DNA from: Solidesulfovibrio aerotolerans
GTDB taxonomy: Bacteria > Desulfobacterota > Desulfovibrionia > Desulfovibrionales > Desulfovibrionaceae
Reading direction: 5' to 3'
Assembly: GCF_009856865.1 (NCBI RefSeq)
Contig: NZ_WVUD01000008.1
Coordinates: 67,499 to 131,498 of the forward strand
Length of the DNA stretch: 64,000 bases
In this document: one piece after another, positions 260 to 27,839 of the stretch
Layout: every line of letters begins with the position of its first letter
How positions within the stretch are numbered: the stretch's first letter is position 1
Notes under the pieces: generated by a model
Databases searched by the model: none
What the model saw: only the letters and a program-made list of their open reading frames with translations
Told to the model about the DNA's origin: nothing
Position numbers and translations under genes: made by a program

Positions 260-476
260 CGTGTCACGTTTTTGAAAAACAGCAGCCGGCGTCTGAAAAC
301 GGCTGCTCGTGGTGCATTTCAAAAGTGTAATGCAAGGATCGAGAGCAAAAGGGCTGTTGTGTCTGTGCCGTAGTCGTGGTTCCTGCGTTGGCGCATGGTG
401 ACTTTGCAATTGACAAAAAGGAGAAAGAACTGAAAGGCTCACGAGATTCACAAGCAATTGCCACGAAGGAGACTGC

Positions 477-875
477 ATGGACGACCATTTGAAAAGCGCA
501 CTGGAAATTGTCAAAGCCCAGGCTTCGGTGCGCACAATGACTCATGAGGAAATTTCTTCCATGGTGCGCTGTCTGGCCGCCGGTATCCGCGCCATCAGCC
601 TCGGCCTGACTGAGGCTGACGACGCGACCGCCGTGGCGATGGACCCTAAAAAAGCGGTGAAGGAAAAATCCATCACCTGCCTGGAATGCGCCAAGACATT
701 TAAGGTCATCACGAAAAAGCATCTGGCCACCCATGGGTTGACCCCGGAGTCGTACAAGGCCAAGCACGGGTTTAAAAAGACCATGCCCCTGGTGTGCAAG
801 TCCTTGCAGCGGGAGCGGCGCAAAAAGATGCAGGATATGCGCCTGTGGGAGAAGAAGGGGAAAGTTGTGGCCTAA
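477..875 (+). CDS. mucR: Ros/MucR family transcriptional regulator (C2H2-like zinc finger)
   Basis: 132 aa. ITCLECAKTFKVITKKHLATHGLTPESYKAKHG matches the Ros/MucR zinc-finger signature. RBS AAGGAG is 8 nt upstream of the ATG. Confidence 0.8.
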   Translation: MDDHLKSALEIVKAQASVRTMTHEEISSMVRCLAAGIRAISLGLTEADDATAVAMDPKKAVKEKSITCLECAKTFKVITKKHLATHGLTPESYKAKHGFKKTMPLVCKSLQRERRKKMQDMRLWEKKGKVVA

Positions 876-993
876 TGGGGCGATTTTCGGTATGAGGGCA
901 ACGAATATGCGAATCGGTCGCACCGTTTTCTGCCTGAGGCCCTGGTGTCCCCCGCAGGAGTTGGCGCGCCAACGATAAGGAGATCGCACGCAC

Positions 994-1269
994 ATGGCTA
1001 AAACCGACATCATCGCCAAGATCCAGGCCAATGCCGCCATCGCCACCAAGGCCGAAGCCGGCAAGGTTCTCGACGCCGTCCTGGCCGCCATCCAGGAGTC
1101 CCTGGCCGGGGGCGAGGCCCTTACCCTGACCGGGTTTGGCACCTTCAAGGTGTCCGAGCGGGCGGCCCGTACCGGCCGTGACCCCCGCACCGGCAATCCC
1201 ATTGATATCCCTGCTTCCAAGGCCGTGCGCTTTACCCCGGGCAAGACCCTCAAGGATGCCGTGAAGTAA
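994..1269 (+). CDS. hup: Histone-like DNA-binding protein HU
   Basis: 91 aa. MAKTDIIAKI...GFGTFKVSERAARTGRDPRTGNPIDIPASKAVRFTPGK is canonical HU/IHF. RBS AAGGAG precedes the ATG and a terminator follows. Confidence 0.9.
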   Translation: MAKTDIIAKIQANAAIATKAEAGKVLDAVLAAIQESLAGGEALTLTGFGTFKVSERAARTGRDPRTGNPIDIPASKAVRFTPGKTLKDAVK

Positions 1270-1289
1270 GTTTTTTTGCAGCCGCATGC

Positions 1290-3365: not shown

Positions 3366-3524
3366 TTAGACTTTGTTGAATTCGCTTTTGGGCGCGCCGC
3401 ACACCGGGCAGACCCAGTCTTCGGCCACGTCTTCGAACTTGGTGCCGGGGGCCACGTTGTTGTCCGGGTCGCCGGCGGCGGGGTCATACACATAGCCACA
3501 GATGCTGCATTCGTATTTGTCCAT
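3366..3524 (-). CDS. rd: Rubredoxin (52 aa)
   Basis: The ORF track missed it because it is under 60 aa. The reverse-complement translation is [52 protein letters not shown]. Two CxxCG knuckles are present. It lies directly upstream of roo, as in the D. gigas rd-roo operon. Confidence 0.85.
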
Positions 3525-3789
3525 GATGCTGCTGCTCCATTGCTTAAGGTTGGCTGGCTTGGCGATCCTTATTTGCCCTCAGCGCCGGGTTGCCCGGGGC
3601 ACCCTTGCCTGAGCGGCAACAAGGTCATCTTCCATCAACGCAACAGCGGCCATCTGACGACAGCCGGGGCACGCCACGGAATCGGCCTCGCCGACAGGAG
3701 GCGCGGGGTAAAATTACCGCGCGCGCACGCCTAAGTCTATCCTTTAGTTTGCACCGAATTGTCAAGACCGGCCCTGCGCCCGGGAACGC

Positions 3790-5805
3790 TTACTCCTGCC
3801 GGAACTGCTCCACCAGCCGGGCCAGATGGTTGGCCATGGTGCGCACTTCGTGGATGCGCTCCCCGGTTTCGGCAATGCGGCTGGTCAGATCCTGGGAAAG
3901 TTCGTTGATATGGGCCACGCTGCCGGCGACTTCCTCGCTGGTGGCAGACTGCTGCTCCGAGGCCGTGGCGATGTTTCGCACCATATCGGCGATGCGGTTG
4001 GCCTGATCGACGATGCGCCCGAGCACCTGCCCCGAGCCTTCGGCCATGTCGGCCGTGCGCTCCACCCGGGTTTTCGTCTCGTCCATCCCGGTCACCACCT
4101 GCCGGGTGCTGTCCTGGATTTCGCCCACAGCACAGGCCACCTCGGAGGTGGCGGTCATGGTTTTTTCGGCCAGTTTGCGCACTTCATCGGCCACAACGGC
4201 AAACCCGCGCCCGGCCTCGCCGGCCCGGGCGGCCTCGATGGCTGCGTTTAAGGCCAGCAGATTGGTCTGGTCAGCGATATCTCCAATAACGGAAAGCACT
4301 TGTCCGATATTGGTGGCCCGGATTTGCAGTTGCCCCAGCGAGGCAGCCAGATCGGCGGTGCGTTTGGAAACCAACCGGGTTTCGGTGACGGTCTGGGCCA
4401 CTTCCCGGCCGCCGGCCTCGGCCTCCCGGGAGGCGTCGCCCGAGGCCCGGGCCGTGTCTCCGGCGTTGCGGGCCACTTCAATGACCGTGGCGTTCATCTC
4501 TTCCATGGCCGTGGCCACGCGGTCGGTTTCCCGGGCGGTATTGGCTACGCCGGTGGTCAGTTCCTCCATACGGGAGCTTAAAACGTCTGCGGCGCTGGAA
4601 AGCGCCTGGGCAACCGAGGTGACTTCGTCGGCCACGGCCAGCAGCTTGGCGCGCTGGGCCTTTATGTGGTCCTTGTCGGTCTCTTCCTGGGTCAGATCAA
4701 TAAGGACGCCGATGACGCCGACCACTTCGCCGGCGGCGTTTTTCAGCGGCGAAATTTCATAATGCAGGGGAAAGGTCTGGCCGTCAGCCCTCGTAAACCG
4801 GGTGAAGCCGCTGGTGCAATCGCCTGAGGACAGAACAGCGGCGCAGCCAGAGCGGCCGTCCTCGCGCAAAAAGCTCTCGACCACGGGCTGGCCGAGCATG
4901 GCCTGGGCCGATTTGCCGAGGATGGTGGTCAGCGGCGTGTTGACGAACTCAAAGCAGCGCTGCCGGTCGGCCACGAAGATGGGGATGATGACGCCGTTTA
5001 AGATGCCCCGGTTGTATTCAAGCTGGTCCTTCATGGCCCCGACCATGGTGGAGAGGTTGCCGGCCAGGGAGGCGATCTCGTCTTTGCCCGGATCGTTAAA
5101 GGTGAGATCCAACGAGCCTTGGGCTATTTTGGCCGACAGGGCGGCGATGGTTTTCACCCGGCCGACCACGGCATATTTCATAAAAAGGAGCAGGGCGGCC
5201 AGCAGGGCAACACCCCCGCCCACCGACAGTCCGGCCGCCTTGTACTGGTCGGCGGCCAACCGGCCCATTTCCGGGGCGATATCCTGGACCACCACCATGG
5301 CCCCGAGGATGGGCTTGGCAGCCCCGTGGCAGTGGTGGCAATCGGGTTCGTTGCGGATGGAAGTGACGGCCACAAAGGAGGGCGTGCCGGCCCAGGTGAG
5401 AATCTCGCCGCCGTGGAAGTCCCCGGCCAGGGCCTTTTTGACCAGCCTGGGCACGGCCGGGTCTGTGGCGGTGCGGTCGATGTCCTGGCGCACGGCCCCG
5501 GTCTCGGTGGCATAGGTCACGTTGCCGCTATAATCCGTTAAAAAGACCCGGATATCTTTGTGGGTAGCGGCCACCTTGGCAAATTGCGCCTTGGTTTCGG
5601 TGTTTTTGCCAAGCCGCATGGGTTCTTCGATGGCCAGGCGCAAGATGTTGCTGGAACGCGTGGCCGCCCGGTCGATCTGGTCCACCGCTCCCTGGCGCTG
5701 CCAGTGGGAGTTGGCCAGAAACAGACCGGCGAAGGCCAGGACGGTCAGCCCCGAAACAAGCAGCAGCACCTTGATTCCCAGCGATCGCGCAACCACATTC
5801 ATCAT
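3790..5805 (-). CDS. dcrA: Methyl-accepting chemotaxis protein with a periplasmic c-type heme site (DcrA-like redox/oxygen sensor)
   Basis: Order is TM1, a periplasmic domain of about 150 aa containing CHHCH (CxxCH heme c motif, coordinates 5326-5340), TM2, HAMP, PAS-like region, then an MA signalling domain ([31 protein letters not shown]). Start taken at [10 protein letters not shown] (5805), which has a GGAGG RBS. Homology to D. vulgaris DcrA is inferred from the CHHCH periplasmic motif. Confidence 0.8.
5326..5340 (-). other. CHHCH heme-c attachment motif inside the MCP periplasmic sensor
   Basis: Reverse complement tgccaccactgccac encodes C-H-H-C-H. Confidence 0.7.
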
Positions 5806-6632: not shown

Positions 6633-9629
6633 CTACCAGTTCAGCGTTGCCTTAAAGGCCTGGGCCAGCGCTTCGGCGGGTTCGTCGCAAAGGACGACGC
6701 TGCCCCGGCGCAGGGTCAGCGCAGGGGACTGGGTTACGCTGCCGAGCCGGCCTATGGGCTGGCCGGTAAACAGCGTCTCGAAGGCGGCCGCATGTTGCGG
6801 GGAAACCGCCACCACAAGCCGGCTCTGGGATTCGCTGTAGAGCAGTTCCAGATCGGTCAGGCGTGCGGCCCCGGGCGCGGCGTTGCAGTCCAGCTCGGCT
6901 CCAAGGCGGCCGCCGATGGCCATTTCGGCCAGGGCCACGGCCAGACCGCCGTCGGAGCAGTCGTGGCAGGCGCTTACCAGTCCGGCCTGGATGGCGGCGA
7001 AAAGGGTTTTATAGCGGCGTCGGGCCGAGACGGCCTCGACCTGCGGCACATCCGGCGACGTGAAACCCAGCTCGTCGGCCAGTTCCGAAGCGCCGAGTTC
7101 GGCGGCTGTGGCCCCGAGGACATAGACCAGATCGCCGGGTTGTTTGAAATCCGAGGTCACGACCTTGGCCACGTCGGGCACGAAGCCCATGACCGAGAAA
7201 AGGACCGTGGGCGGAATCGAGATCTTGGCGCCGCCGCCGGAGTAGTCGTTTTTCATGGAGTCTTTGCCCGACACGCAGGGCGTCATAAACGCTCGGCAGA
7301 AATGGGCCAGGGCCTTGTTGGCCCGCACAAGCTGGGCCAGCTTGTAGCGGCCGTCCGGGGTCTTGGCCGACTCCACCGGATCGCACCAGCAGAAGTTGTC
7401 AACGCCGGCCAGACGGTCGGGATCGGCCCCCACGGCCACGGCCGAGCGCACCGCTTCGTCGATGGCGGCGGCCATCATCCAGTAGGCGTCAATGTCGGCA
7501 TAGCGCGGACAGATGCCGTGGGTGAGCGCCACGCCTTCGGAGCGCGACAGCACCGGGCGCAGCACGCCGCCATCGGACGGGCCGTCACGGCGCACGCCGC
7601 ACAGGGGCTTGACGGCCGAGCCGCCCTTGACCTCGTGGTCGTACTGGCGGACCACGTATTCCTTGCTGCAGATATTAAGCCGGCCGAGCATCGTTTTGAG
7701 CAGCGCGCCGTGGCCGCCGGCCGGCAGGACCGGTTCGGTGCGCGCGATAACCGGACGCTTCCAGGTGGCGGCAAGCGCCATGCGCGGCGTGCCGTTGTGC
7801 AGGAAGTCCATGTCGATGTAGGCCACCGTGCGCTGGCCGTAATAGACACGCAGATAGCCGGAATTGGTATAGTTGCCCAGTTCCGTGGCTTCGACGCCCA
7901 TTTCCTTGGCCAGGGCCATGAATTCGGCGAACTTGTCCGGCGGCACGGCCAGGGTCATGCGCTCCTGGGCCTCGGAGGTGAAAATCTCCCAGGGAACCAG
8001 CCCATCGTATTTGAGCGGCACCCTATCGAGGTAGAGTTCGCAGCCGCCGGCGTCCTGGGCCATTTCACCCACCGAGCTGGACAGGCCGCCGGCCCCGTTG
8101 TCGGTGATGGCGTTATACAGGCCCAAATCCCTGGCGCGCATGAGGCAGTCGTACATGCGGCGCTGGGTGATGGGGTCGCCGATCTGCACGGCGGTTGCCG
8201 GCGAGCCTTCGTGCAGCTCTTCCGAGGAAAAGGTCGCGCCGTGGATGCCGTCCTTGCCGACCCGGCCGCCGACCATGACGATGTAGTCGCCGGGCAGGGC
8301 CTTTTTGTAATGGCTCGGTTTGCCGTTGATAACGGCCGGCAGCATGCCGACGGTGCCGCAAAAGACCAGCGGCTTGCCGAGATAGCGTTCATCAAAAACG
8401 ATGGAGCCGTTGACGGTCGGCACGCCGGACTTGTTGCCGCCGTGCTCAACACCCTCGCGAACGCCTTCCAGCACCCGGCGGGGGTGGAGCAGGCGCGGCG
8501 GCAGTTGGCCCTTAAAAAAGGGCGAGGCAAAGCAGAAGACGTCGGTGTTGCAGAGCAGATTGGCACCGATGCCTGTGCCCATGGGGTCGCGGTTCACCCC
8601 CACGATGCCGGTCAGGGCGCCGCCGTACGGGTCCAGCGCCGAGGGGCTGTTGTGGGTCTCGACCTTGATGCACAAATTGAGTTCTTCGGTGAATCGCACC
8701 ACACCGGCGTTGTCGGAAAAGACCGACAGGCAGAAGTCGCGTTCGCCCAGGGCAGCCCGGATGTCGGCGGTGGACCGCTGGATGTAGGATTTGTACAGGC
8801 TGACGATGTCTTCCTCGGTGCCTGCTTCCTCGTCGCGGTAGGTGATGGCTGCGCTAAAAATCTTGTGCTTGCAGTGCTCGGACCAGGTCTGGGCCAGACA
8901 CTCGAGCTCCACGTCGGTGGGGTTGTGGATAAGCCCCCAGGACACCCGGCGCAGTTTAAAGCCCGGCAGGCCGAAATAGCCCCGGATGGCCCACCACTCG
9001 TCCAGGGACAGGGCGAGCGTGCGCTCGTTGCTTAGGGCCTGCATCTGCTCTTCGGTCATATTGAACAGGTCGGGCACGGTGACGGTGGAGTCGGCCTTGC
9101 CGGTGACCTTGGCCGCCCGGGCCGGGAAACCCGGAACGGCTGCCCATTCGTCGCGGGATTTGATCTCGTGGCGCTGAAGCAGATCGTTGGCCAGCAGATC
9201 CAGGGCGACGTGGGCGGCGCTGTCCCGGTCGGGCAGGCCGCAGATGTGATATTGGACGGCGGTGTAGACGGCCAGCTCTTTCCTGCGGGCGTCGTCGAGC
9301 CCAAGGGCCAGGGCAATGGCTTCCTTGGCGGTGCGGGCCTCGTTGTCGGTGACGCCGGGGCGGAAACCCACCTCGATGACCCAGTCGGCCGGGTCGCCCT
9401 GGGGCGTAAGCGGCGCAGCGGATGCGGTCTGGACCACGACGTCATGGAGCACGCCGGCGTCGATGACGGCAGCTATTTCGGCGTCGGTCAGGCCGGCGAT
9501 GGTGAAAATTCGGATCATGGCGACGGCGGTCACCGGCAGATGCAATTCGTTTTGGATCTTGCCGGCCACGCGCTGGCCGACCACATCCCGGACGCTTGGG
9601 CGCAGGCCCACGGCGACGCGACTGAGCAT
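6633..9629 (-). CDS. purL: Phosphoribosylformylglycinamidine synthase, long form with N-terminal PurS-like domain (PurS-PurL fusion)
   Basis: 998 aa. The N-terminus MLSRVAVGLRPSVRDVVGQ resembles PurS. The AIR-synthase-related PurL core follows (GVGANLLCNTDVFCFASP, GIHGATFSSEELHEGS). GGAAGGA RBS precedes the start. Confidence 0.85.
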   Translation of the reverse strand: MLSRVAVGLRPSVRDVVGQRVAGKIQNELHLPVTAVAMIRIFTIAGLTDAEIAAVIDAGVLHDVVVQTASAAPLTPQGDPADWVIEVGFRPGVTDNEARTAKEAIALALGLDDARRKELAVYTAVQYHICGLPDRDSAAHVALDLLANDLLQRHEIKSRDEWAAVPGFPARAAKVTGKADSTVTVPDLFNMTEEQMQALSNERTLALSLDEWWAIRGYFGLPGFKLRRVSWGLIHNPTDVELECLAQTWSEHCKHKIFSAAITYRDEEAGTEEDIVSLYKSYIQRSTADIRAALGERDFCLSVFSDNAGVVRFTEELNLCIKVETHNSPSALDPYGGALTGIVGVNRDPMGTGIGANLLCNTDVFCFASPFFKGQLPPRLLHPRRVLEGVREGVEHGGNKSGVPTVNGSIVFDERYLGKPLVFCGTVGMLPAVINGKPSHYKKALPGDYIVMVGGRVGKDGIHGATFSSEELHEGSPATAVQIGDPITQRRMYDCLMRARDLGLYNAITDNGAGGLSSSVGEMAQDAGGCELYLDRVPLKYDGLVPWEIFTSEAQERMTLAVPPDKFAEFMALAKEMGVEATELGNYTNSGYLRVYYGQRTVAYIDMDFLHNGTPRMALAATWKRPVIARTEPVLPAGGHGALLKTMLGRLNICSKEYVVRQYDHEVKGGSAVKPLCGVRRDGPSDGGVLRPVLSRSEGVALTHGICPRYADIDAYWMMAAAIDEAVRSAVAVGADPDRLAGVDNFCWCDPVESAKTPDGRYKLAQLVRANKALAHFCRAFMTPCVSGKDSMKNDYSGGGAKISIPPTVLFSVMGFVPDVAKVVTSDFKQPGDLVYVLGATAAELGASELADELGFTSPDVPQVEAVSARRRYKTLFAAIQAGLVSACHDCSDGGLAVALAEMAIGGRLGAELDCNAAPGAARLTDLELLYSESQSRLVVAVSPQHAAAFETLFTGQPIGRLGSVTQSPALTLRRGSVVLCDEPAEALAQAFKATLNW

Positions 9630-9687
9630 GGCGTTCCTTCCGTTTTGAGGTCACAAGTGTGCGGGCACGCCGCCGGCAGGCGTCTTC

Positions 9688-10656
9688 CTATTTCTCCCGG
9701 GCGAGCATGGGAGCCAGGACGTCGCTGATCAGTTCGGCTTCGGGGGAGGGGGGAAACAGGGCCAGGGCGGCTTGGGCCTTGGCCAGATACTCGGCGGCCC
9801 TCTCCCGGGTTTTCTCGGCGTGTCCGCCGGCAACGATGTTGCCGCGCAAATATTCGATATCTTCGGCCGAGAGCTGGTCCTGGCGGAAATCTTCAGCCAG
9901 CCGGCGGCGTTCCTCGAAGGGCAGCGTCGCCAGATAGAGGATCAGCGGCAGGGTGACCTTGCCTTCCTTCAAATCGCCGCCGGTGGGCTTGCCGGACACG
10001 GTGGCCGGGGAGGTGTAGTCCAGGGCGTCGTCCACGAGCTGGAAGGCGATGCCGATGGCGTGGCCAAGATCCTGGGCCGCCTGGCACAGCGTTTCACTGG
10101 CTCCGGCCAGCACGGCGCCGCAGTGGCAGGACGCCTGGATGAGGTAGGCGGTCTTGCCGGTGATGATGGAAAAATAGGTGTCCAGCGGCAGATCGACATC
10201 GCGCAGATGGGCGATTTCCTGGATTTCCCCGGTGGCGGTCTGCAGGAGCGCCTCGGACAGGATGCGGGTCAGCTCCGGGTCGTCGTATTCGGCCACCAGC
10301 CGGTTGGCCAAGGCGAGCAATACGTCGCCGGCCAGGATGGTGTGTGTGGCGCCGAAAAGCACATGGGCCGAGGCGCGGCCCCGGCGCAACTTGGCCCCAT
10401 CGACGATGTCGTCGTGCAGCAGCGTGGCCGAGTGCAAAAATTCCAGGGAGCAGGCCAGGGGATGGACGTTGTCCCCGGCATACCCCAAGGCTCTGGCCAC
10501 CAAAATGGTGAGCAGCGGGCGCAGGCGCTTGCCTCCGGCCAACAGCACATGGCGCACCACCGGCTGCACCAGAGGGTTTAGCGTATTGGCCGCGCCCTCC
10601 AGGTACCGGTTGATGGCCGGGACTTCCCGAGTCAAAATGTCCGCGATATCGCTCAT
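9688..10656 (-). CDS. Polyprenyl-diphosphate synthase (IspB/HepT family; menaquinone side chain)
   Basis: The two Asp-rich motifs are LLHDDIVDGAKLRRG and FQLVDDALDY. Start at MSDIADILTRE (10656). The upstream N-terminal extension in the ORF track is rejected. Confidence 0.8.
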   Translation of the reverse strand: MSDIADILTREVPAINRYLEGAANTLNPLVQPVVRHVLLAGGKRLRPLLTILVARALGYAGDNVHPLACSLEFLHSATLLHDDIVDGAKLRRGRASAHVLFGATHTILAGDVLLALANRLVAEYDDPELTRILSEALLQTATGEIQEIAHLRDVDLPLDTYFSIITGKTAYLIQASCHCGAVLAGASETLCQAAQDLGHAIGIAFQLVDDALDYTSPATVSGKPTGGDLKEGKVTLPLILYLATLPFEERRRLAEDFRQDQLSAEDIEYLRGNIVAGGHAEKTRERAAEYLAKAQAALALFPPSPEAELISDVLAPMLAREK

Positions 10657-23481: not shown

Positions 23482-24243
23482 TCAGTCGCGCCGCTTTTTG
23501 TCCAGACCGCCGCCCACCACCCATTTGATCTGGCGGCATACGCCCATGAGCAGATTGAATTCGTGGCGCCTAAGCCCCACCCGGTCGATGAAGCGGCGCA
23601 CCGGCAGCATCCAGTAGTCCGGGTTGTCGGCCTTTAAAAAATCAATGGCCAACAGCGACTCCCGCAGCGCTCCAAACAGCGATTCCCGCTCGGCATGGGT
23701 GGCGGCGCGCGAAGGCAAGGGCACATCCTCTTCCTCGGCCAGCCCCTGGGAGGTCTTAAAGACCTCGTAGCAGACCAGCAGCACGGCCTGGGCCAGATTG
23801 AGCGAGGTGGCCTCGTCGGCTGTGGGGATGTTGACCAGCCGGCCGCAGAGCTGCGTCTCCTGGTTGGACAACCCGGCGTCCTCCGGCCCAAAGACCACGG
23901 CCACGCCATCGCCTGCGGCCAGGGTCCGCCAGACGCTGCCGGCCGCCTGCCCGGGGGTGATCACACCCTTGCGCCAGCCGCCCAGCCGCGCCGTTGTGCC
24001 GTAGACATCCTGGGCTCCGGCCACGGCCTCGGCCAGGGTGGCGACGATTTCCAGCCGGTCGAGTAGCAACCCGCCCTTGCTGGTGGCCATGGGCCGTGCC
24101 CGGTCCAGGTCAAAGGCCGGCGGATCGACCAGCACCAGCCGGGTTACACCCATGTTGGCGCAGGCCCGGGCCGCCGCGCCGACGTTTTCCGAGAATTTGG
24201 GTCTGAAAAGGACGATAGTGAGATTATTGAGCATAGTTTCCAT
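23482..24243 (-). CDS. SpoU-family RNA 2'-O-methyltransferase (TrmJ/TrmH-like)
   Basis: LTIVLFRPKFSENVGAAARACANMG...VAVVFGPEDAGLSNQE...LNLAQAVLLVCYE are SPOUT motifs. Start at METMLNN. The start is uncertain. Confidence 0.65.
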   Translation of the reverse strand: METMLNNLTIVLFRPKFSENVGAAARACANMGVTRLVLVDPPAFDLDRARPMATSKGGLLLDRLEIVATLAEAVAGAQDVYGTTARLGGWRKGVITPGQAAGSVWRTLAAGDGVAVVFGPEDAGLSNQETQLCGRLVNIPTADEATSLNLAQAVLLVCYEVFKTSQGLAEEEDVPLPSRAATHAERESLFGALRESLLAIDFLKADNPDYWMLPVRRFIDRVGLRRHEFNLLMGVCRQIKWVVGGGLDKKRRD

Positions 24244-24492
24244 GGAATAGAGCAGGAGGAATGTCGGGAGGGAGGCCCCGTCTTTCCCGCAACGTTTACA
24301 GACGCGGCTTGTTTTATCAAGCGAAAGTGAAAATGGGGGAGTGGTGACTGCTCCCTTGCTCGGCAGCGATGCACAGCGCATCAAACATGGCAGGCAGATA
24401 TGAGGAAAGCGCCTTGACCGCTGCGGCTATTCGTGGACCAGTAAGTATAAGGAGCCCGCTGTAGAGAGAGAACCTCAGCCAGGAGAAAGGAA

Positions 24493-25131
24493 ATGCCCTT
24501 TGAATCAGAATCGTTACTTGATGATATGAAATTGAATAATAGACTCATCCTCGCTGAGAGCGAATTGGAGCACTCTATAATCTATGCTCTTCTTAATAAG
24601 GCACAGGAAATTGATAATGCTGCATTGCTCAGAGAGATTAATAAGTATACTCCAGTTCAAAAATTTGAACGAGATTACACAATGCTACAGGGTCCAATTT
24701 ATGTGCCAATTTCTCCAGCGAATGCTGATATTGACAAAAATATTCAACGCGCCCGTGCCAGTTGGAGCCCGTCATGGTTTTTGGAGAAACTCGCTCCAGG
24801 CGGAGAGATGGATTATAAAGCTGGCCATGGTAATATAAAATATGAAGATTTTGGAAATTTTAATTATGGTGCTGTCGCACTTGCTTTTGGTTTGTCGGAG
24901 AAAGTAGCATTGCGAGGAGCAGGCTTGGTACAAACGATTGTTGATATTTCAAGAATAAAGAACAATAAAGGTTCTGACGAAGCAAAACAATATTTTAAGG
25001 ATCATAAATTTGATTTTCTTGGCCGTGAATCTTACGGTGACCAGCGGAAAGATCAGGAAATGATCAAACAGGGGTTCCGTTATTACAAAGAGGTCTATTT
25101 AAAAAAAACAGTCAAGCAAAACAGCAATTGA
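24493..25131 (+). CDS. Hypothetical protein in AT-rich islet (no Cys, no signal peptide; possible toxin-like or defense protein)
   Basis: 212 aa. GGAGAAAGG RBS. Base composition is markedly AT-richer than the flanks. Motifs KAGHGNIKYEDFGNFNYGAVALAFG and YGDQRKDQEMIKQGFRYY were not recognised. Confidence 0.5.
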   Translation: MPFESESLLDDMKLNNRLILAESELEHSIIYALLNKAQEIDNAALLREINKYTPVQKFERDYTMLQGPIYVPISPANADIDKNIQRARASWSPSWFLEKLAPGGEMDYKAGHGNIKYEDFGNFNYGAVALAFGLSEKVALRGAGLVQTIVDISRIKNNKGSDEAKQYFKDHKFDFLGRESYGDQRKDQEMIKQGFRYYKEVYLKKTVKQNSN

Positions 25132-25420
25132 AGATTTTGAGAATATGCAAGAGATACAGAAAAGGATTGGAGCAGAAGAGTGGGGTAGTTTTTTTCAGAA
25201 TGGAAAATATAAAAGTACTACGAGAAAAATAGTCTGTCGCATTGTTAAATAGTGTAATGGCACTCTTTCGTGAGAGGAGTTGGTATTCACCGCGCCGCAA
25301 GTTTTTCCCTGGTCAGTCTTCCGTAAGTCAATGCGCTGCACGCCATCCAACTGCGGTCAGGAATAGAGCTGATAGTTAGCATTACGTTGCGACAACGCTT
25401 AGTCATTTAAAATTGTTAGT

Positions 25421-26170
25421 CTATTTGTTTTGTGTTGGACGGACATAATCCCCCGCCTCTTCGTCTGGGGGGTCGTTCATGATGATAGGCAAATAGCCAA
25501 GCTCTGGATATATAATATACCAGCAGCGTTCAAGCTTGTGGGGAAAACGCGCTCTTTCAATTCTTATCCAGCGCGAAATGTTGTCGTCAGGAACGTAACA
25601 AAGTCCGATATCGAGTGTGAGAATATTCCATCCTAACGAAAAAATTGCACTTGTTTGGTTATCAATTGTTGTGTAAATGGTTAAACCGTTTTGTGTGGCG
25701 AGATGAGTATGGGGTTGTGGCAAGTGTATGACTGCTGATGGCGTGTTTTTGTTGCCAATTCGCCCATTTTTAATCATCTTGATGATTTCTATGCGTTCTT
25801 GTTTGAATAATTCGAAGTATAGTTTGTCGTCAATACTGCCAGAAGGGCCTGGGGGGTAGTATACTATGAAATAGAGATTGAAAAGAAGTGGGAGGACGGC
25901 CCAAAGAGGCGTTGTCCAGACATAGCGGAAAAAGACATATGTATTGCGGATGAGCAAGAAAAATTCATATAGTAAAATCCAGTTGGGCAGGGGGCGGCTG
26001 ATATTAAACGGCATGCGGCAGCACAGGATGTAGCCGAAATACAGGAATGGCGTAACAAGCGCCATGAATGTGAGCATCGCCCGCAAGGCTCGCTGGCAGC
26101 GTCGTTTCGCCAGCCAACGACGGCGCGCAGGGCAGACGGGCATTTGCGGAACCTGCGTCTGGATGATCAT
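25421..26170 (-). CDS. Hypothetical membrane protein in AT-rich islet (2-3 TM plus about 150-aa soluble C-terminal domain)
   Basis: Convergent with the previous gene. The hydrophobic region is FLYFGYILCC...LWAVLPLLFNLYFIVYY. An alternative start is at MLTFMALV (26077). Neither start has a clear RBS. Confidence 0.45.
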   Translation of the reverse strand: MIIQTQVPQMPVCPARRRWLAKRRCQRALRAMLTFMALVTPFLYFGYILCCRMPFNISRPLPNWILLYEFFLLIRNTYVFFRYVWTTPLWAVLPLLFNLYFIVYYPPGPSGSIDDKLYFELFKQERIEIIKMIKNGRIGNKNTPSAVIHLPQPHTHLATQNGLTIYTTIDNQTSAIFSLGWNILTLDIGLCYVPDDNISRWIRIERARFPHKLERCWYIIYPELGYLPIIMNDPPDEEAGDYVRPTQNK

Positions 26171-26399
26171 GGCACCCGTTTATCGGTTTTTCAATGGATA
26201 CGCCAGACCAGCCCCGAGGCGCAGTGCGTCGGCGGGGTTTCGCCGCCAATCAATTTGCAGAACTTCTCCAATTGAGGGGGCGGGGGTGTCTCCACAGCCG
26301 CCGGGGCAATGGTGGTTCCCGTCAAGCTTGCCGTGCGGCATTGCCCACCCGACAAAAGTGTATTCTCCGCCCCACCCACCGTCGCGGCAACGCCGTCCC

Positions 26400-26500
26400 C
26401 CACGTAACCCCTTGCCTTCCAGGAGGGATTCCAAAGGGGCCACCCCTTTGGCCGCCGGAGGCCTCTTCTGTCTTTTCTTCGCGTCCGTTTTTCCGCTCTC
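26400..26500. repeat. Degenerate solo arm of the palindromic repeat family seen at 14023-14354
   Basis: GGCCGCCGGAGGCCTCTTCTGTCTTTTCTTC matches the copy A right end GGCCGCCGGAGGCATCTTCTGCCTTCCCTTC. The hairpin CCAAAGGGGCCACCCCTTTGG lies upstream. Confidence 0.45.
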
Positions 26501-26501
26501 G

Positions 26502-27839
26502 CTACAGCGAGCAGAACACCGTCGGGTCTTCGCTAAAGGGCGTCACTTCGTGCTGGCCGGTGGATTCGAGCACCGAGCGCCAGTAATCCGAGGTGATGTT
26601 GAGTTTTTTGCGCTTAAGCGTCACGAGATCCAGCGGCAGATGGACGTAGCGGTCGAAAAGGCGCGACACCACCATGCCGGTCTTGCCGGCCATGGCGGCG
26701 TGGACGGCGTTTTGGCCGAGGAAACCGCAGTAGACCCGGTCGTTGGCGTTGGCCGGCACCGAGCGGATGATGTAGCTGGGGTCGATAAATTTCAGCGTGA
26801 GCGGCATGTCGCGCTCGCGGAAATAGTCTTCGATTTCGCCGCACAGGAACTGGGCGATATCGCCCAGCACCGGATTGCCCGAGGCGTCGCGGGCACCGGT
26901 GTCCGGCAAAAGGCTTTGCCCGGCACCCTCGGCAACCACAATGACGGCGTGTTTGCGGGATTTAAGCCGCGTCTCCAGTGACGGGAGCAGCCCGTGGGGA
27001 CCGGTCAGGGAAAAGGAGCATTCCGGCACCAGGACGTAGTTGACTTCTTTAAGGGCCAAGGTGGCCTGGGCGGCAATAAACCCGGATTCCCGGCCCATGA
27101 CCTTGACCAGGCCCACGCCGTTAAGCGCGCCGATGGCCTCGGTATGGGCGCAGCGGATGGCCTCGGTGGCCTTTTCCACGGCGGTGTCGAAGCCAAACGA
27201 CTTGGTGACCAGATTCACATCGTTGTCGATGGTTTTGGGCACGCCGATGACGCTTATTTTCGAGCGCCTGCGGGCAATTTCCTCCTGGATGCGCCGGGCG
27301 GCCTTCATGGTGCCGTCGCCGCCGACGACAAAGAGGATGCCGACGTTTAAGCGCTCCAGGGAATCGACGATGTCCTCGGGGCGCTGGGGGCCACGGCTGG
27401 AGCCGAGCACCGTGCCGCCGAACTGGTGGATGTCGGATACGGCCTCGGAAGTCAGGTCCACCGGGGCATGGCCGTAGGACTCGATAAAGCCTTGCAGCCC
27501 GAACCGGATGCCGAGCACGCCGGCCACATTGTAGTTGTGGCGGCACTCCATGACGATGGCCCGGATGACGTCGTTTAAGCCCGGACACAGCCCGCCGCAG
27601 GTGACGATGGCCACCTTGACCTTGGACGAGTCGAAATAGATCTTGCCGCGTGGTCCGGCCAGTTCGAAATCGGCCCGGCACGGACCGGTCCCGGGGCCGA
27701 AATCGCTGGCATCAAGCTCCATGGTGACCCGGTCCGCATCGTCGGTAAACCGGCAATAGGGCAGCGGGGAGGGGATCTTGGCCGGCCCCAGCGTGGCAAT
27801 GGCGGTCTCGGCCGGGGAGACAGGACAACGGTCTTGCAT
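26502..27839 (-). CDS. pfkA: 6-phosphofructokinase (long PfkA-family form)
   Basis: IVTCGGLCPGLNDVIRAIV, VVGGDGTMKAARRI and GVPKTIDNDV are PFK signature segments. AAGGAG RBS. ATP versus PPi specificity is not resolved. Confidence 0.85.
   Translation of the reverse strand: MQDRCPVSPAETAIATLGPAKIPSPLPYCRFTDDADRVTMELDASDFGPGTGPCRADFELAGPRGKIYFDSSKVKVAIVTCGGLCPGLNDVIRAIVMECRHNYNVAGVLGIRFGLQGFIESYGHAPVDLTSEAVSDIHQFGGTVLGSSRGPQRPEDIVDSLERLNVGILFVVGGDGTMKAARRIQEEIARRRSKISVIGVPKTIDNDVNLVTKSFGFDTAVEKATEAIRCAHTEAIGALNGVGLVKVMGRESGFIAAQATLALKEVNYVLVPECSFSLTGPHGLLPSLETRLKSRKHAVIVVAEGAGQSLLPDTGARDASGNPVLGDIAQFLCGEIEDYFRERDMPLTLKFIDPSYIIRSVPANANDRVYCGFLGQNAVHAAMAGKTGMVVSRLFDRYVHLPLDLVTLKRKKLNITSDYWRSVLESTGQHEVTPFSEDPTVFCSL

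Follow-up and report, generated by a model that had tools for sequence, protein, structure and literature searches.

What is a small AT-rich islet with two convergent genes doing between two housekeeping genes of Solidesulfovibrio aerotolerans? The islet lies in a 64,000-nucleotide (nt) stretch of contig NZ_WVUD01000008.1 (assembly GCF_009856865.1, positions 67,499 to 131,498 of the forward strand), the whole of which we call the window and number from its first letter. A first reading of the letters and their open reading frames (ORFs), the sequence-only reading, had suggested a foreign toxin/immunity or anti-phage module. Our analysis indicates that the islet is probably an acquired two-gene toxin–immunity cassette of the polymorphic-toxin kind, in which an Ntox44 toxin, partly decayed here, would act on the cell envelope and the convergent membrane protein (ORF B) would confer immunity. 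The two genes are:

24493..25131, + strand: toxin gene as now read, 212 amino acids (aa), with a complete Ntox44 domain after an N-terminal helix of ~65 aa

25421..26170, − strand: ORF B, candidate immunity protein, 249 aa, with a basic N-terminus and hydrophobic helices at ~31-51, 64-81 and 89-105

Both ORFs, together with a third of 35 aa (25145-25252, + strand), are present as first described; the 212-aa product has no cysteine and contains the two motifs singled out in it. The description of an AT-rich islet of ~1.8 kb between housekeeping genes also stands: the flanks are trmJ and pfk, and the G+C content (GC) falls from ~0.64-0.70 in the flanking DNA to 0.37-0.45 over roughly 24300-26100. 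For 24410-26215 the GC is 0.434, against 0.636 for the whole window, and when GC is computed over 500 nt at a time the islet is the sole dip below 0.52, its minimum being 6.9 standard deviations below the remainder.

The 212-aa protein had been reported to lack a recognised domain, which is wrong. It matches the Pfam family PF15607 (Ntox44, Bacterial toxin 44) with E=5.1e-15 and 56.2 bits (the gathering cut-off is 24), and its RefSeq name is already 'polymorphic toxin type 44 domain-containing protein' (WP_160959803.1). Of the statement that neither protein belongs to a known family, only the part on ORF B, for which no Pfam family matched, survives. Residues 114-200 of the toxin align to positions 40-104 of the 104 profile positions, so that the last profile position is reached at residue 200. 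Three motifs are given for this family by Zhang et al. 2012 (PMC3482391), DxK, GNxxxG and DxxxD, and the window toxin holds all of them (D107-Y-K109, G121-NFNY-G126 and D183-QRK-D187). In an alignment of 11 Ntox44 domains, which spans Desulfobacterota, Gammaproteobacteria, Alphaproteobacteria, Bacteroidota and Bacillota, the invariant residues are D107, K109, G121, N122, G126, A143, G144, Q147, D183, D187 and I191. The AlphaFold2 (AF2) model of the toxin is all-alpha, with helices only (predicted local distance difference test, pLDDT, 77.8; predicted template modelling score, pTM, 0.73). All 26 close homologs, which come from Solidesulfovibrio and metagenomes, match PF15607 and are short (230-256 aa) stand-alone proteins. 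In a distant match (P0025) the Ntox44 domain directly follows the DPLGMEP end of an RHS core, which puts the domain boundary of the window toxin at about residue 68. The toxin can thus be described as a stand-alone Ntox44 protein with a subfamily-specific N-terminal helix and a tail of ~40 aa, and the helix and tail may serve delivery.

The cassette is found between different neighbours in Solidesulfovibrio genomes: between an HU gene and a PCC-domain gene (L001-L003; also L088), between an HU gene and tmk (L087), between a GGDEF gene and a DHBP synthase gene (L004, which is Solidesulfovibrio carbinolicus CP026538, and L006) and between trmJ and pfk (the window and L005). The convergent pair was observed at six loci with four flank combinations, and in addition at L088, where it is split by an insertion sequence (IS). 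The GC of every cassette copy is 0.37-0.47 and that of the hosts 0.64-0.74, and the low GC persists although the synonymous divergence (dS) between copies is 0.5-0.66. One of these sites is empty in the window itself: the interval 1275-1522, between an HU gene (979-1269, + strand) and a PCC-domain gene (1513-2037, − strand), is the empty form of the site occupied in L001-L003 and L088. Window positions 465-1274 and 1523-1971 align to 3471-4279 and 6094-6546 of L001, with 248 bp between them in the window and 1814 bp in L001. Horizontal acquisition, as first proposed from composition, is borne out by a low-GC cassette that sits between different neighbours in other genomes of the genus and by the site that is empty here. 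Eight Solidesulfovibrio loci were also fetched via trmJ; they keep trmJ-mscS, have other genes upstream and show no AT-rich dip. None of the eight provided a clean empty trmJ–pfk site, and the empty HU–PCC site served instead.

Three side observations concern these sites. The spacer of the empty HU–PCC site contains the HU terminator and a GC-rich tandem array (1381-1484, period 13-14 nt, ~7.6 copies). At the HU site (window 465-1274; L001:3483-4275), the AT-rich cassette of L001 lies directly beside Ros/MucR-family and HU genes, perhaps by coincidence; MucR-type proteins silence AT-rich DNA in Alphaproteobacteria. When window 24025-26321 is compared with L005, dS is 0.48-0.66 for the cassette genes and 0.21 for the adjacent 5' part of trmJ (only 73 codons), and the higher value of the cassette hints at exchange by recombination or at faster evolution of AT-rich DNA.

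In the window the toxin gene does not run to the end that its homologs have. Two features at its 3' end account for this:

25101..25108, + strand: run of eight A (A8), the +1 frameshift site that truncates the toxin; removal of an A restores a 251-aa ORF

25109..25252, + strand: displaced C-terminal tail of the toxin (…EDFENMQEIQKRIGAEEWGSFF…), one frame over, taking in the 35-aa ORF 25145-25252

Every full-length homolog has the C-terminal tail of ~40 aa, with the motif EEWxSFF, and the 212-aa product lacks it. If one A is deleted from A8, which is the longest homopolymer of the islet, a continuous 251-aa ORF results whose tail matches the homologs. The closest relative, L005 (same insertion site, 81% DNA identity over window 24025-26321), is one base shorter exactly at 25101; it also differs by 2 nt in the T7 run at 25189-25195, and the stop that aligns with the L005 stop is the frame-3 TAG at 25230-25232. 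The 35-aa ORF, listed earlier as a separate third gene, is therefore the toxin's own tail, displaced by the extra A. The 130-aa Ntox44 proteins of enterobacteria end at the same point as the Pfam profile (window residue 200); the Ntox44 domain is complete, so the product is truncated yet not necessarily dead. The frameshift separates the tail from an Ntox44 domain that stays whole, and we consider that the module is probably turning into an 'orphan immunity' locus.

It could also be that the toxin is intact in the living strain and the cassette fully armed, the A8 and T7 differences being errors of sequencing or assembly, or being bypassed by transcriptional or ribosomal slippage. The two differences do sit in the two longest homopolymers of the islet, the ratio of nonsynonymous to synonymous divergence (dN/dS) of the toxin (0.17 between the window and L005) indicates selection until recently, and the domain itself is complete. 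However, an identical 212-aa product was also called in a second public assembly (Logan), which may stem from the same reads, and independent toxin lesions in L005, L088 and L090 show decay to be common in this family. An intact toxin is thus a minority possibility, somewhat unlikely in our view, and we keep to a partly decayed one.

These lesions differ in kind. In L005 the toxin is frameshifted at a different A8 run. In L088 (GCA_032941855, JAWDGO010000138.1; 6888-9016) it is split by an IS256-family transposase gene (PF00872, 7254-8462) into an N-terminal part (9016-8522) and a C-terminal part (7160-6888), and ORF B (279 aa) is intact. In L090 the toxin is gone, with no remnant, at the site that is filled in L004 and L006. 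ORF B is intact at every locus examined, including those with a damaged or absent toxin. Extra copies are found as well: upstream of its intact pair, L004 (6889-7903) has a further ORF B paralog (6889-7674, − strand) and a fragment of Ntox44 (7562-7903), and in L006 one toxin is followed by two ORF B genes in tandem (8826-10326). Both loci resemble arrays of immunity and toxin genes. Orphan immunity genes are described as partners that are kept and duplicated while their toxin disappears (PMC9796082), and repeated damage to the toxin with ORF B always kept is accordingly what is expected if ORF B is an immunity gene. The comparison of the window with L005 shows purifying selection on both genes (dN/dS of 0.17 for the toxin and 0.23 for ORF B), and across six loci the pairwise identities of the toxin correlate with those of ORF B (r=0.91; the pairs are not independent).

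The pairing reaches beyond the genus. On plasmids of Bacillus cereus and B. toyonensis, a 242-aa Ntox44 protein with a Sec signal (WP_171856577.1) is followed by a 196-aa three-helix protein (WP_000739922.1), which matches a hidden Markov model (HMM) built from Solidesulfovibrio ORF B sequences only (E=5.5e-19, 57 bits, HMM positions 88-221) and, by BLASTP, window ORF B itself (25% identity over 110 aa, E=6e-6). In every Solidesulfovibrio cassette the two genes converge; in Bacillus, in enterobacteria and in the RHS loci the partner is co-directional. With an Ntox44 toxin, a partner that is kept as the toxin decays and a homologous partner after Ntox44 in Bacillus, the toxin/immunity half of the original proposal is supported, and ORF B is most likely the cognate immunity protein of the Ntox44 toxin. 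We find it improbable that ORF B is instead a helper of release or export (holin-like or lysis-protein-like) or an unrelated membrane protein that travels along. ORF B is indeed a membrane protein with a transcript of its own, release genes are also present in colicin loci, and the wider ORF B family often occurs without Ntox44; but a release factor is useless without cargo, and ORF B is kept under purifying selection where the toxin is frameshifted, split by an IS or deleted. ORF B is moreover duplicated in L004 and L006, and the Bacillus toxin, which has its own Sec signal, still keeps an ORF B homolog.

What kind of protein is the presumed immunity partner? ORF B has no match in Pfam, NCBIfam, PADLOC or PHROGs, and none of its 14 close homologs has a Pfam match. 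In 1.84 billion proteins the wider family, of ~200 aa, is represented by 188 clusters (representative clusters, E<=1e-3), and no Pfam domain was found in the members tested. Its members begin with a basic N-terminus, which is followed by three hydrophobic helices, the second and third joined by a short basic loop; in their C-terminal domain, of alpha/beta type, P151, F177, Y192 and W217 are invariant. Window ORF B shows all of these traits. The C-terminal domain extends over ~115-225, where the pLDDT of the AF2 model is 76-88. Lysines and arginines, counted in 28 members, average 4.5 over the last 20 residues of the N-terminal part, 0.36 for loop 1 and 2.3 for loop 2 (7 residues), and this charge bias is present in 28 out of 28 sequences. 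By the positive-inside rule this corresponds to an N-in/C-out arrangement with a periplasmic soluble domain, so ORF B is predicted to sit in the inner membrane with its three helices and to expose its C-terminal domain to the periplasm. Structural comparison gave no further lead on either protein: neither the ORF B nor the toxin AF2 model resembles a solved structure. One apparent relative, P0157 (2003 aa, 11 'stretches'), was discarded as a spurious match, being a protein of Calx-beta repeats. A distant ORF B-family gene in a compost metagenome (L091:4637-7481, RCUF01000301.1) lies among genes for small hypothetical proteins and a 301-aa Barstar-domain protein; this locus may be an immunity-gene island without a toxin.

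Where, then, would the toxin act? We compared the candidate immunity proteins of seven types of Ntox44 loci:

Solidesulfovibrio locus: ORF B

Bacillus locus: ORF B homolog

Enterobacter (divergent from hcp), Pantoea and Serratia loci: protein of ~150 aa, anchored in the membrane by its N-terminus

RHS locus L094: protein with a Sec signal peptide

RHS locus L095: lipoprotein

Clostridium botulinum locus: DUF5412 lipoprotein

Hymenobacter locus: unannotated lipoprotein ORF

In all seven types the candidate is exported or membrane-anchored (signal peptide, lipobox or membrane anchor). Two of these loci deserve a remark on annotation. In Hymenobacter sp. DG01 (plasmid NZ_CP040937.1; L103:3353-3780), the AT-rich lipoprotein ORF (MRKITIVSLLISCSC…) directly follows the Ntox44 end of a LamG/RHS protein and is likely a missed immunity gene. 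In Serratia marcescens (plasmid AP028481.1; L100:3492-4307), an annotated 271-aa 'hypothetical protein' can be read as Ntox44 (aa 1-110) continued by a Pantoea-like membrane-anchored immunity candidate; two genes have probably been joined here by a frameshift or by the annotation.

The toxins themselves point in the same direction. The C. botulinum Ntox44 domain is fused to two PG_binding_1 domains (E=8e-36), and the Bacillus toxin and Ntox44 homologs from corals have plain signal peptides and no translocation module. Among colicins, membrane immunity genes of opposite polarity are reported to be typical of those that target the membrane or peptidoglycan synthesis, not of nuclease colicins (PMC6668396, PMC9517006). 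Taken together, the exported or anchored immunity candidates (seven out of seven), the PG_binding_1 fusion, the toxins with only a Sec signal, the predicted topology of ORF B and the polarity rule of colicins argue for a toxin that acts on the envelope. We therefore propose, with slightly less than even confidence and from sequence comparison, that Ntox44 may be an envelope-directed toxin (peptidoglycan, lipid-linked precursors or membrane) and the ORF B family its first recognised immunity family, ranging from Desulfobacterota to Bacillota; no immunity family is listed for Ntox44 by Zhang et al. 2012 (PMC3482391). In such a scheme the toxin would be harmless in the cytoplasm of the producer and, once delivered to a neighbouring cell, would attack its envelope, i.e. 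peptidoglycan, lipid-linked precursors or the inner membrane on its outer face. Incoming toxin would be neutralised by ORF B at the interface between membrane and periplasm, and ORF B would be expressed independently of the toxin, as are the opposite-strand immunity genes of membrane- or wall-directed colicins.

Several points weigh against this interpretation. Ntox44 is a 'predicted RNase' (ribonuclease) according to Pfam and many papers, and no assay, structure or assigned immunity protein for any Ntox44 was found in the literature that could be searched. For signal peptides and topology, the analysis relied on hydropathy and charge counts rather than on dedicated predictors. The window toxin lacks a signal peptide and any recognisable trafficking domain: its helical part of ~65 aa before the domain has no Pfam match, and there is no RHS, PAAR, LXG/WXG, filamentous haemagglutinin or signal-peptide module upstream of the toxin domain, although RHS and Sec relatives exist elsewhere. 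No secretion genes were seen near the cassette, and genes of a type VI secretion system (T6SS) are absent from the window and from the neighbourhood of every Solidesulfovibrio cassette. Polymorphic-toxin immunity genes usually lie downstream of the toxin on the same strand, and here the partner is convergent. The position of both indels in the longest homopolymers (A8 and T7) makes a sequencing error possible. Finally, five distant ORF B-family genes (three looked up by contig, L091-L093, L105 and L106 in all, with the two metagenome loci being all that the metagenome scan gave) have no Ntox44 in their fetched flanks, some of which are short, so the family is often orphaned or is not restricted to Ntox44.

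The first of these points can be put as an explanation of its own: Ntox44 would be a cytoplasmic RNase, as Pfam has it, and ORF B would either protect in another way (e.g. by blocking entry through the inner membrane) or not be the immunity protein, the true one being elsewhere or absent. The label, which derives from Pfam and Zhang et al., recurs in many papers, the lack of a signal peptide on the window toxin would fit it, and the acidic and basic residues conserved in DxK and DxxxD could make a nuclease site. Yet in the papers found the label is repeated without data. It also has to be set against seven candidate immunity proteins that are all exported or membrane-anchored, fusions of Ntox44 to peptidoglycan-binding domains and to Sec signals without a translocation domain, and an opposite polarity of membrane immunity that is reported as atypical for nuclease colicins. 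We regard a cytoplasmic RNase as unlikely, and hold to an envelope target as the tentative choice.

The sequence-only reading had also considered that the module might defend against phages, since small foreign islets with a soluble and a membrane protein are found among such systems. An intracellular toxin–antitoxin or abortive-infection system would suit a foreign two-gene islet of this make-up with no delivery system visible nearby, but the searches gave it no support: neither protein has a family in PADLOC or PHROGs (0 for both), and tblastn against 50,697 phage records returned no match. The homologs show no defence-island context either, their neighbours being housekeeping genes in all seven contexts, and Ntox44 is found at RHS C-termini, beside Hcp and behind Sec signals, which speaks for an exported interbacterial toxin. 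An anti-phage or toxin–antitoxin role thus appears very improbable, the least probable of the explanations considered here, and the toxin–immunity cassette remains the one we adopt.

The edges of the cassette and the spacer between its genes are marked by three further features:

24414..24451, + strand: upstream element of the toxin gene and left cassette edge, TTGAC(C), 14 nt, GTGGAC…TATAAG, promoter-like

25253..25420, no strand: spacer between the convergent genes, without a terminator-like site; 5-181 nt in other cassettes

26171..26206, − strand: upstream element of ORF B and right cassette edge, CTGGCGTATCCATTGAAAAACCGATAAACGGGTGCC, then ATG; ~36 nt, supporting the start of the 249-aa product

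In the left element TTGAC is invariant, and TGGAC nearly so, in six cassettes at four genomic sites, and the similarity between cassettes ends just 5' of TTGAC; from this conservation the element may be the promoter of the toxin gene. The upstream pattern of ORF B, TGGCG(Y)…CGG/TTGAAAA…GATAG…GCCATG, is likewise common to cassettes at different sites, which suggests that ORF B has its own promoter. The pattern resembles a sigma-54 -24/-12 element (TGGCGT-N5-TTGAA), a reading that we set aside, as the GC dinucleotide at -12 is not conserved among cassettes. A generic promoter and terminator scan of the islet gave nothing above shuffled sequence, and the spacer 25253-25420 folds no better than shuffled sequence (z=0.18).

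The left neighbour is a SpoU/TrmJ-type RNA methyltransferase gene (match to PF00588; 160.7 bits on the TrmJ/YjtD subfamily model), whose true start is the ATG at 24243, and beyond it lies a gene for an MscS-type channel. On the right is the gene for ATP-dependent 6-phosphofructokinase, pfk (670 bits on NF005301). The cassette has a chromosomal location, flanked by trmJ and pfk; an exact protein match leads to Desulfovibrio (Solidesulfovibrio) aerotolerans, locus tags GTA51_06965 and GTA51_06970. There is no tRNA gene in the window, no match to Rfam and no integrase was found, and neither a terminal repeat nor a target duplication was found at the cassette. A 17-nt inverted repeat (24454-24470 and 26496-26512, 15 out of 17 positions paired) brackets the islet; we judged it a chance occurrence because its right arm overlaps the pfk stop, outside the conserved cassette, and ~0.2 such pairs are expected by chance (a rough estimate).

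For S. aerotolerans itself the cassette is an ordinary, partly decayed competition module. Its wider meaning lies in the toxin family: Ntox44 is widespread (it is found in effectors of the RHS, PAAR, LXG and stand-alone kinds, turns up in studies of gut-microbiome transmission and is present in reef-building corals), and its RNase annotation extends to effectors of the T6SS and the type VII secretion system (T7SS) and to horizontally acquired coral genes. The cassette ties Ntox44 to a specific membrane-protein family. If the toxin does act on the envelope, many 'RNase toxin' annotations would be wrong, and Ntox44 would represent a new antibacterial activity with an unmatched fold.

How does the cassette compare with known systems? 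A type II toxin–antitoxin system has a small, soluble, co-transcribed, DNA-binding antitoxin and a toxin that acts in the cytoplasm, whereas the partner here is a membrane protein of 249 aa that lacks a Pfam domain and is encoded on the opposite strand. Like the cassette, the loci of pore-forming colicins, of colicin M and of colicin Z with its immunity protein Czi (PMC6668396, PMC9517006) have an inner-membrane immunity gene on the opposite strand. Unlike those loci, the cassette is chromosomal and has no lysis gene among its ORFs, since the 35-aa ORF that might have been a third gene is the toxin tail. No SOS box and no receptor-binding or translocation domain was identified in it, though no dedicated search for them was made. 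Colicin Z was considered as a homolog and rejected, because no sequence link was found (it is an analogue only), and the toxin domain has no Escherichia coli match by tblastn against 72,556 plasmids.

Similarity to periplasm-acting T6SS pairs (Tae4/Tai4, and Pse2/Psi2 in Pantoea; PMC9796082) is found in the immunity proteins, whose signal peptide or membrane helix points to an effector that acts in the periplasm, and the orphan-immunity arrays of T6SS loci (PMC9796082) resemble the cassette in that immunity genes outlast toxins. The 130-aa Ntox44 genes of enterobacteria do adjoin hcp, and are then followed by a membrane-anchored partner. The Solidesulfovibrio cassettes differ from T6SS effector–immunity pairs in having no T6SS gene beside them, and delivery by a T6SS is unproven here. 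The Bacillus plasmid pair has a homologous toxin domain and a partner of the ORF B family that likewise has three hydrophobic helices and shares the C-terminal domain; in contrast to the cassette, its genes are co-directional, its toxin carries a classical signal peptide and its host is Gram-positive, and the identity to the window proteins is ~25-30%.

The Ntox44 polymorphic toxin systems (PF15607; PMC3482391) share with the cassette the toxin domain, its three motifs, the all-alpha fold and a tightly linked, variable partner, as well as orphan or degenerate copies and immunity paralogs at the loci. They differ from it in delivery and in the partner: the cassette has no RHS, PAAR, LXG or signal-peptide delivery domain, its partner is convergent, and a specific membrane-protein family is linked to the toxin where none is listed by Zhang et al. 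We conclude that the islet represents a known kind of cassette with an atypical, convergent and stand-alone architecture and a so far undescribed family of putative immunity proteins.

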